Part shown: piece after piece, positions 59 through 4,462 of the stretch | How the letters are laid out: every line of letters begins with the position of its first letter | How positions within the stretch are numbered: the first letter of the stretch is position 1 | Origin: Enterobacteria phage ID18 | Direction: 5' to 3' (one strand) | DNA: 5,486 nucleotides | Sequence record: NC_007856.1 | Made by a program: the position numbers and the translations under genes | Notes under the pieces: generated by a model | What the model saw: the letters and a program-made list of their open reading frames with translations, nothing else | Databases searched by the model: none | Told to the model about the DNA's origin: nothing

Positions 59-1729
59 ATGCAACAACACTTAACCGCTTCGGACTTCTACCGCAAACCA
101 ATAATCGACGCTATCAAACCTCTTGTCGAAACTGCTGGTATGTCTGTGCTAACTCAATCTCCTAACCTCCGTATCTGGAAACAGTGCAACACTCGCGTAA
201 AACTGCTGGAAGAAATTCTAAATCATTACACTAACGGTATTCGCCGTGATGATAATGGTGACTTCTTTCTCAACCCTGAATGCCAACTCGCCACTACAAT
301 TGCTTATCGTGCTCACAAAAAGGGCCATAACCCTCGCTTTAAACAATACCCTGAGTCATTCACTCTGGACGATATTATTACTGGCAAACCAATTCCTCAG
401 ACTGCCCCTTCTGAGCTTCAACTTACTGATGAAATCGGTGAGGATTACCGCCTTACTGTACTCTCCATAATCGAAGAGTTAGACGAATGCTACAACGTGC
501 TCGGACAACTTGATATTAATAACACTATAGACCACAAACCTATCGGTAACGCCAAATGGGACTTAATGTATGAAAAACCTGTCTATAAACACTGGTATGA
601 ACTGGTATCAAAACGACCCCTTAAATCAATCAGAGAGGACTACAACTATGCAAAGGCTAAGGGTACTAAAGATGAGTGCTCGAAAATCCTTGAGGAATCC
701 ACCATGAAATCCCGCCGTGGCTTTACCGTTCAGAGATTGATGAATGCTATGCGTACTGCCCACACTGATGGCTGGTATGTTGTATTCGATACTCTCACCT
801 TAGCTGATGATCGTATTAAGGACTTCTATGCTAACCCCAATGCTCTTCGTGACTATTTCCGTGATATTGGCCGTATGGTTCTCACTGCCGAGGGTCGTTC
901 GGTCCATGATTCATCTTCGGACTGCTATCAGTACTTTTGTGTGCCTGAGTATGGCACCCAGCATGGCCGTTTACACTTTCACGCAGTGCATCTTATGCGC
1001 ACACTTCCTTTGGGTTCTCTCGACCCTAACTTTGGTAAGCTGGTGCGTACTAATCGGCAAATAAATAGCTTGCAAAACACATGGCCTTATGGTTACTCTA
1101 TGCCCATCGCAGTCCGGTATTCTCAGGATGCTTTCTCTCGCGCTGGATGGCTCTGGCCTGTCGATACAAAGGGTGAACCCCTTAAATCCACCTCGTATAT
1201 GGCTGTAGGCTTCTACGTTGCTAAATACGTTAATAAAAAATCTGATGTTGACATAGCCGCAAAAGGCTTAGGGAATCAAAAATGGAACGCTACATTAAAA
1301 ACGCAGATGGCTCTTTTACCAAAGAAACTATTTCGAATTCGAATGAGCCGCAACTTCGGGATGAAACTACTCCCAATGACGACGCTGACCGCGGAGTGTT
1401 TAATCCAACTGACCCAAGTGGGTTACGACGTGACCCCGTTCAACAACATCTTGAAGCAGAACGCCAAGAAAGAGCTACGATTGAGGCTGGCAAAGCAATC
1501 TGTAGCCGACGTTTTGGAGGCGCAACCTGTGACGACCAATCTGCTAAAATTCATGCGCAATTTGACCCGAACAATCGGAGCGTCCAGCCTACAGAGTTTT
1601 ATCGCTTCAATGACGCAGAAATTAGCAAATACGGATATTTCTGATGAAACTAAAAACTACGTTACTAATGCAGGAATTGCTGTTGCTGACTTACGACTTA
1701 AATCGAAGTGGACTGCTGGTGGAAAATGA
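59..1729 (+). CDS. A: Replication initiation protein A (rolling-circle HUH endonuclease; viral-strand nickase/ligase)
   Basis: Long ORF (frame 2) strongly similar along its C-terminal two thirds to phiX174 protein A as recalled. HUH motif HFHAVH is encoded at about 974-991 and the catalytic YVAKY tyrosines at 1214-1228. Start placed at ATG 59, which has a GGAGG Shine-Dalgarno at 45-49 with 9-nt spacing; the track's ATG at 29 has none. Stop TGA at 1727-1729. Confidence 0.85.
506..535 (+). other. Viral (+) strand origin of rolling-circle replication (30-nt ori core, protein A nick site)
   Basis: Sequence CAACTTGATATTAATAACACTATAGACCAC is identical to the conserved phiX174/G4 origin 30-mer as recalled. 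Protein A is expected to nick between G512 and A513. It lies inside gene A, as in all phiX-like phages. Confidence 0.85.
704..1729 (+). CDS. A*: Protein A* (in-frame internal initiation product of gene A; 341 aa)
   Basis: In-frame ATG at 704 encoding MKSRRGF..., the same N-terminus as phiX174 A*, preceded by GAGG at 692-695. The predicted length of 341 aa equals the phiX174 A* length as recalled. Expression is inferred by homology. Confidence 0.65.
1070..1099 (+). promoter_or_regulatory. Candidate promoter pB (inside gene A, upstream of gene B)
   Basis: -35-like TTGCAA at 1070-1075 and a weak -10-like TACTCT at 1094-1099 (18-nt spacer), about 180 nt upstream of the B start. Position and sequence resemble the phiX174 region TTGCAAAATACGTGGCCTTATGGTTACAGT. 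Weak -10, so low confidence. Confidence 0.3.
1282..1644 (+). CDS. B: Internal scaffolding protein B (120 aa), encoded entirely within gene A in a different frame
   Basis: 120-aa ORF in frame 1 nested in A. The product has the conserved [20 protein letters not shown] and EFYRF...GYF C-terminal motifs of phiX174 protein B. Stop TGA at 1642-1644. Confidence 0.9.
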
Positions 1730-3836: not shown

Positions 3837-3845
3837 AACAAAACG

Positions 3846-3881
3846 TTGAACGGGTACAAATTTTAATTTGTGCCTGTTCAA
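3846..3881 (+). other. F-G intergenic imperfect hairpin (about 13-bp stem including G-T/G-U wobble pairs, AT-rich loop)
   Basis: 3846-3858 (TTGAACGGGTACA) pairs with 3869-3881 (TGTGCCTGTTCAA) around the loop AATTTTAATT. It sits in the 92-nt F-G untranslated region, which in phiX-like phages holds the post-F terminator and complementary-strand priming signals. Confidence 0.4.
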
Positions 3882-3928
3882 GGTTGAACAAGCGAAGCGC
3901 GTTAGCTAACTTACTTAAGGAAATTCTC

Positions 3929-4462
3929 ATGTTTCAAACTTATCTCTCTAAACATAATTCTCCGTTAACTTCTCTGTCTATTACTGCTACAAAAACACCT
4001 GCGGCTGCTGCTCCGATTATTTCTACACCGGAGCTTAGCCGCTCTACTATTTTCGCTGGCTTAACTCTGACTGCTGCCACTACTCATTCTGGTGTCGCTC
4101 ATGTCGTTCGTATTGACGAAACCAATCCTACTGACAATCAGGTCTTATCGGTCGCCGCTTCTTTATCTGGCGTACCGTCTGATGCTATTGCTATTGCTAT
4201 TCGCTTTGAGGTCGCTGACGGTACCGTCCCTACTGCTCTCCCTGCTCTCTACTCTGCTTATCCGGTGGAATTCTTCACTTCTGGCGCTGCTCTGTCTTGT
4301 AAGGATGCCGTATCTATTCCGACGCATCCTGTTACTGCTGGTAATGATGTATATGCTGGTATTCTTATCTGGTCCAAATCTTGGTCCGCTGGTGTCGTCT
4401 CCGGCCTCTTATCTGTTAATCAGGTAAACCGTGAAACTACCGTACTCCAACCTCTTAAATAA
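3929..4462 (+). CDS. G: Major spike protein G (177 aa)
   Basis: ATG at 3929 preceded by TAAGGA at 3916-3921. The product begins MFQTYLSKHNS (phiX174 G begins MFQTFISRHNS) and ends ...SLNQVNRETTVLQPLK (phiX174 ...SLNQVIKEIICLQPLK). The track ORF starts at an upstream TTG (3884) and is over-extended. Confidence 0.88.
   Translation: MFQTYLSKHNSPLTSLSITATKTPAAAAPIISTPELSRSTIFAGLTLTAATTHSGVAHVVRIDETNPTDNQVLSVAASLSGVPSDAIAIAIRFEVADGTVPTALPALYSAYPVEFFTSGAALSCKDAVSIPTHPVTAGNDVYAGILIWSKSWSAGVVSGLLSVNQVNRETTVLQPLK

Follow-up and report, generated by a model that had tools for sequence, protein, structure and literature searches.

The window, by which we mean the whole stretch of 5486 nt that was analysed, is the genome of a G4-like microvirus (Microviridae, Bullavirinae, Gequatrovirus), circular and complete. 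An IMG/VR entry (IMGVR_UViG_638275834_000001, the same as L042) has the identical sequence, and coliphage WA14 (DQ079909) matches it at 98.4% from end to end; the genes annotated in WA14 (A, A*, B, K, C, D, E, J, F, G and H) have the same order and coordinates as in the window. G4 and ID11 are about 83% identical to it, and phiX174 and the alpha3 group match it in parts only. The features in and around the 30-mer considered here all lie within gene A:

59-1729, + strand: gene A, encoding the HUH rolling-circle initiator gpA and containing its own origin (Pfam PF05840; gpA is annotated there in WA14)
506-535, + strand: almost certainly the viral (+) strand rolling-circle origin, the 30-nt 'icosahedral phage origin' or ori+ (exact match to phiX174 and G4)
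506-515, + strand: putative recognition/cleavage module CAACTTG^ATA (all five origin variants share positions 3-10, ACTTGATA)
516-522, + strand: AT-rich spacer TTAATAA (variable sequence, fixed length of 7 nt)
523-534, + strand: distal module CACTATAGACCA, the putative duplex-binding 'key' sequence (invariant in lineages retrieved by protein similarity)
704-1729, + strand: A*, with an in-frame internal start 3' of the origin (WA14 annotation)
974-982, + strand: HUH motif, H306-F-H308 in GRLHFHAVH (H306 and H308 are invariant columns in the gpA alignment)
1214-1228, + strand: catalytic tyrosine pair Y386-V-A-K-Y390 (both tyrosines invariant in the gpA alignment)

The identification of gene A, which the first-pass annotation had anchored on the origin, now stands independently of it on the PF05840 match, the WA14 annotation and the sequence motifs of the product. 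The gpA of the window scores 195.2 bits against Pfam PF05840 (Phage_GPA; E = 1.8e-57), well above the curated cut-off of 31.4, and carries both hallmarks of Phage_GPA initiators, the HUH motif and a tyrosine pair with Y-x-x-x-Y spacing. Y386 and Y390 correspond, with an offset of 43 residues, to Y343 and Y347 of phiX174, whose catalytic role has been described (bioRxiv 10.64898/2026.07.25.740675).

Just 5' of gene A, a hairpin (GCCTCC-N8-GGAGGC, 31-50) followed by TTTT resembles the H-A intergenic terminator, and GGAGG (45-49) in its 3' stem is the ribosome-binding site 9 nt 5' of the ATG at 59, where gene A starts in the WA14 annotation; a like overlap between terminator and ribosome-binding site has been described in phiX174 (bioRxiv 10.64898/2026.07.25.740675). 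The ATG at 29 reported by the ORF finder abuts the 5' stem of this hairpin, its G being the first base of the stem, and is probably unused. Further downstream, the top sigma-70-like site of the genome, TTGACA-18-TATTAT (11/12), spans 1913-1942 within gene C and lies 40 nt upstream of gene D, which is the place expected for the D promoter known in phiX174 (bioRxiv 10.64898/2026.07.25.740675).

A 30-mer shared with phiX174 and G4

Positions 506-535 of the + strand read CAACTTGATATTAATAACACTATAGACCAC, and the same sequence is found letter for letter in phiX174 (NC_001422.1, 4299-4328) and in G4 (V00657.1, 500-529). The exact match to these origins that the first-pass annotation had claimed is therefore borne out at 30 of 30 positions, with no mismatch to the canonical origin. 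When the window was compared directly with 17 annotated genomes, the 30-mer was unchanged also in S13, NC1, ID2, ID204, ID41, NC2, MG1, vB_1081, EMCL318 and WA14; in alpha3, phiK, St-1, WA45 and NC29 (the alpha3 group) it has two mismatches and reads CAACTTGATAATAGTAACACTATAGACCAC. The match at 506-535 is the single one on both strands of the window when up to three mismatches are allowed, and 0 of 200 shuffled sequences held a match. Searches of the window with the 30-mer (up to three mismatches) and with its 10-mer core (up to two mismatches) gave no second, better origin-like site beyond chance, the core recurring at two other sites against 5.6 expected.

The 30-mer lies on the + strand within gene A, 5' of the A* start (704), at codons that are homologous across the codon alignment described below. 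Position 506 is a first codon position in the gene A frame, and the ten residues encoded by 506-535 are 150-159 counted from the ATG at 59. In the phiX174 RefSeq record the 'origin of viral strand synthesis' (rep_origin) is placed at 4306, the base after G4305 and base 8 of the 30-mer, so that by transfer of this annotation the nick in the window would map between G512 and A513, where the first-pass annotation had also expected it.

From these comparisons we regard it as nearly certain that 506-535 is the viral-strand (+) rolling-circle replication origin of this G4-like microvirus, and none of the data speak against it. An origin of the phiX174/G4 type at this place is an already known textbook feature, a 30-nt origin common to the icosahedral ssDNA coliphages having been known since about 1980, and the call itself adds nothing to microvirus biology. 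For the ID18 genome it would settle which gene is A, which strand is packaged, and where rolling-circle replication starts and ends (G512^A513).

Nucleotide-level constraint on the origin

Conservation of the origin was compared with that of the rest of gene A in a codon alignment of 18 genomes from Gequatrovirus, Sinsheimervirus and Alphatrevirus. Its columns are invariant at 28 of 30 positions, which ranks it first among the 1393 segments of 30 nt in gene A, and the runner-up, directly upstream of the HUH motif, reaches 23 of 30. None of the ten third codon positions of the origin varies, although each could change synonymously; in the rest of gene A 75 of 464 (16%) are invariant, and at most five of these follow one another. 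Fitch parsimony steps were also counted for 21 gpA genes on a neighbour-joining tree from whose construction the origin columns had been left out. The origin accounts for 8 steps, compared with a median of 51 for the 30-nt segments of gene A and 23 for the lowest of the others, and its ten third positions together for 2 steps, compared with about 3 per third position elsewhere (the Poisson P is about 2e-15 when all sites are counted and about 5e-11 when only third positions are). The comparison of synonymous sites that the first-pass annotation had proposed thus comes out in its favour by both counts.

The divergence of the flanking gene A sequence, which had likewise been claimed, is seen in the pairwise comparisons. 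Between the window and phiX174 the flanks (±150 nt) are 50% identical and the remaining N-terminal part of gene A 53%, with the origin identical at 30/30, and by simple arithmetic 30 matches in a row at a background identity of 50% have a P of about 1e-9. The corresponding flanks are 80% identical to those of G4, with the origin again at 30/30, and 39.5% identical to those of alpha3, with the origin at 28/30. In BLAST searches with positions 400-640 of the window, the alpha3-group alignments cover 506-535 alone and the phiX174 alignment ends exactly at 535. These data demonstrate that the origin is under purifying selection at the nucleotide level.

It could be argued that the 30 nt are conserved solely as an essential peptide motif of gpA, the DNA itself having no cis-acting function, and Q150, L151, D152, N155, T156, I157, D158 and H159 are indeed invariant in the gpA alignment. 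This explanation is hardly credible, however, given that ten third positions capable of synonymous change are all invariant across three genera, against 16% elsewhere, and that the substitutions which do occur alter amino acids (I->N, N->S, Q->R and H->Q). Both changes seen in the alpha3 group, T11A and A14G, fall in the spacer at second codon positions and are non-synonymous (I->N and N->S), so that the DNA is conserved more than the protein, the reverse of the outcome of selection at the protein level. Experiments on phiX174 also speak against a constraint on the peptide alone, since complete mutagenesis found synonymous changes in these codons, from Q107 to D115, to be harmful and to colocalise with ori+ (bioRxiv 10.64898/2026.07.25.740675); H116 is missing from the list of harmful codons, which fits the freedom of position 30 seen in the comparison of genomes.

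Residues also change at the places where the DNA can vary (positions 2, 11-17 and 30), with Q or R at codon 1, INN, NSN, NTC, ILG or IKY over the spacer and H or Q at codon 10, and a frozen stretch of DNA necessarily fixes the peptide that it encodes. Across 506-535 both remaining forward frames carry stops (TGA, TAA and TAA in one, TAG in the other), so that the origin can be passed in one frame only, which is the frame found in every lineage. What coding demands of the stretch therefore seems mainly to be that it stay open in the sole stop-free frame. Of the dual constraint put forward in the first-pass annotation, the part acting on the DNA is upheld by the frozen third positions, whereas a separate constraint on the peptide is not, as residues change where the DNA is free. 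As a cis-acting DNA signal within a coding sequence, with synonymous sites frozen while the surrounding protein diverges, the viral-strand origin makes a clean teaching example.

Microvirus genomes are rich in overlapping genes and embedded signals, but it is extremely improbable that the conservation stems from some other overlapping element (a hidden gene, an RNA or DNA structure or a promoter), given that no ORF of at least 30 aa other than gene A crosses 506-535 and both other forward frames hold stops there, that the folded single strand leaves the 30-mer unpaired, with no hairpin at the origin (MFE -3.2 kcal/mol, z +0.86), that the whole window has no match in Rfam, and that no promoter- or terminator-like consensus site was found at 506-535.

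Just 5' of the origin, GTGCTC (within 497-505) is conserved in the G4-like and phiX-like genomes and not in those of the alpha3 group, and in Gequatrovirus 13 consecutive third positions, from 499 onwards, are invariant. The conservation of 497-505 may reflect a slight 5' extension of the origin constraint, or it may be due to chance.

Modules and spacer in distant relatives

When IMG/VR was scanned with the gpA alignment as protein seed, 22 loci were returned. Among these, L024 has a gpA 52% identical to that of the window and the exact 30-mer; in L039 and L040, whose gpA is 32-34% identical and whose GC content is about 0.53-0.55, the homologous codons read CGACTTGATAATACATGCACTATAGACCAT, again in the same frame. 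The variant CAACTTGATATATTAGGCACTATAGACCAA occurs in L060, the contig of L038, and CGACTTGATATAAAATACACTATAGACCAG in L063, which came from a scan with the DNA pattern; all metagenomic origin variants are located within gpA homologues. Across the five origin variants, positions 3-10 (ACTTGATA) and 18-29 (CACTATAGACCA) are constant, whereas positions 11-17 vary while remaining AT-rich; A or G is found at position 2, and any of C, T, A and G at position 30 (nt 535). The spacer between the putative cleavage and binding modules, which in the window is TTAATAA and thus A/T at 7/7 positions, takes the forms ATAGTAA, ATACATG, TATTAGG and TAAAATA in the other variants.

The distal module CACTATAGACCA is invariant in L024, L039, L040 and L060, all of them retrieved by protein similarity. 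The bipartite origin pattern has one match per contig, and when spacers of 2-14 nt were allowed the scan returned the same 23 contigs, in every one of which the spacer is 7 nt. Because the pattern required both modules, L063 wholly and L060 partly do not count as independent evidence of module invariance; L024, L039 and L040, which were seeded by protein, do. L045 and L062 provide an independent replicate, their ±150-nt flanks being 77-81% identical and their own origin variant 30/30.

These distant relatives bear on another explanation, according to which the identity of the 30-mer would result from a recent patch of recombination or gene conversion, or from contamination or chimerism with a phiX174 spike-in, instead of long-term selection. 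Horizontal transfer among microvirid coliphages is documented, to go by the title of Rokyta et al. (2006); sequencing data are commonly contaminated with phiX174, and records bearing the names of Mycolicibacterium and Protaetiibacter phages appear among the BLAST matches. Even so, we give this explanation next to no probability. The 30 nt form a sharp island whose frame and location are unchanged across all genomes of the three genera and across the uncultivated lineages, the flanks in the window are G4-like and not phiX-like, and the tree-based step count of the origin is far under that of every other part of gene A. Moreover, the divergent lineages keep the two modules only and have spacers of their own, which a recent patch would not yield. 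As a separate observation, the Mycolicibacterium phage J1 and Protaetiibacter phage records contain gene A sequence identical to that of phiX174, which probably stems from spike-in contamination of those assemblies.

Long-term selection on a replication origin is thus the reading that we retain, and it is extended modestly by the finding that metagenomic relatives with very divergent initiators keep both modules and the 7-nt spacing while having new spacers. It is possible, although we would put it at somewhat less than an even chance, that the origin is a frozen bipartite code, ACTTGATA-N7-CACTATAGACCA, unchanged across GC-richer uncultivated Bullavirinae-like lineages with gpA of 32-35% identity, while the spacer sequence and positions 2 and 30 drift; the spacer variants could then serve for lineage-specific tuning or determine specificity, and the stops would lock the frame of gene A throughout the group.

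The five IMG/VR genomes L045/L062, L060, L063 and L061 belong to uncultivated Bullavirinae-like phages, measure 4.9-5.5 kb at a GC content of 0.40-0.55 and encode a gpA that is 32-52% identical to that of the window. New spacer variants are present in four of the five (L045/L062, L060 and L063); L061, with a gpA of 52% identity, has the exact phiX174 30-mer.

Predicted course of replication and comparison with known origins

By homology with phiX174 and G4 we infer where exactly the nick lies (G512^A513), that the intermediate is covalent and what each of the three sub-modules does, the last also from the comparative pattern. In such a scheme gpA would bind to CACTATAGACCA (523-534), the distal module, on supercoiled replicative-form DNA, after which the 7-nt AT-rich spacer (516-522) would melt. 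Either Y386 or Y390 would then cut the + strand at G512^A513 in CAACTTG^ATA and become linked to the 5' phosphate of A513, and the 3'-OH of G512 would prime leading-strand synthesis by the host polymerase with Rep helicase. After one turn the regenerated origin would be cut by the second tyrosine and the old strand ligated into a circle, which could go back to the replicative form or be packaged.

The division of the phiX174 origin into cleavage, spacer and binding parts is said to come from work of the 1980s by Baas, Jansz, Heidekamp, Fluit and van Mansfeld, and in the same decade Fluit, Baas and Jansz reportedly found that the 30-nt phiX174 origin suffices in cis for rolling-circle replication and its termination as well as for packaging. 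Gene A of phiX174 contains the ori (PMC3606162), and cleavage and religation take place at G4305/A4306, inside the 30-nt ori+ (bioRxiv 10.64898/2026.07.25.740675). The scheme as a whole, with binding and nicking sites, two tyrosines and termination coupled to reinitiation, has been reviewed (PMC5714925).

The phiX174 ori+ (4299-4328; nick at G4305/A4306) agrees with that of the window in all 30 positions and in strand, frame and encoded peptide; in both genomes it lies in the N-terminal part of gene A, 5' of the A* start, and the initiator has the HUH and Y-x-x-x-Y motifs. The two differ in the surrounding gene A, which is about 50-53% identical at the nucleotide level, and as the N-terminus of gpA is 43 residues longer in the window, the peptide is 150-159 there and not 107-116. 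The origin of the alpha3/St-1/phiK group, CAACTTGATAATAGTAACACTATAGACCAC, has both modules, a 7-nt spacer and the same frame, but differs from the window by T11A and A14G in the spacer (I->N and N->S) and in its flanks, which are about 40% identical.

In the double-strand origins of other HUH-initiator replicons, such as pT181/pC194-type plasmids and CRESS-DNA viruses, the nick site is typically located in the loop of a hairpin or cruciform. As in the window, these origins have binding and nick sites, the latter cut by a tyrosine of an HUH Rep, and in these systems Rep remains attached to the 5' end until it closes the circle when replication terminates (PMC5714925). Unlike them, the window origin has no predicted hairpin and lies inside the coding sequence of its own initiator.

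The G4 origin (V00657, 500-529) matches that of the window at 30/30, within the same genus (Gequatrovirus), with the same gene order and with flanks about 80% identical. The genome of the window is 91 nt shorter than that of G4, and its F-G intergenic region (3837-3928) is of the ID2/MG1 type and not of the G4 type. This region is without about 45 nt that are found in G4, whose annotation places the primer RNA and the complementary-strand origin there (3970-3998), and for this reason the complementary-strand origin of the window may differ from that of G4. The F-G intergenic region of the window also contains a 21-nt imperfect hairpin at 3842-3885.
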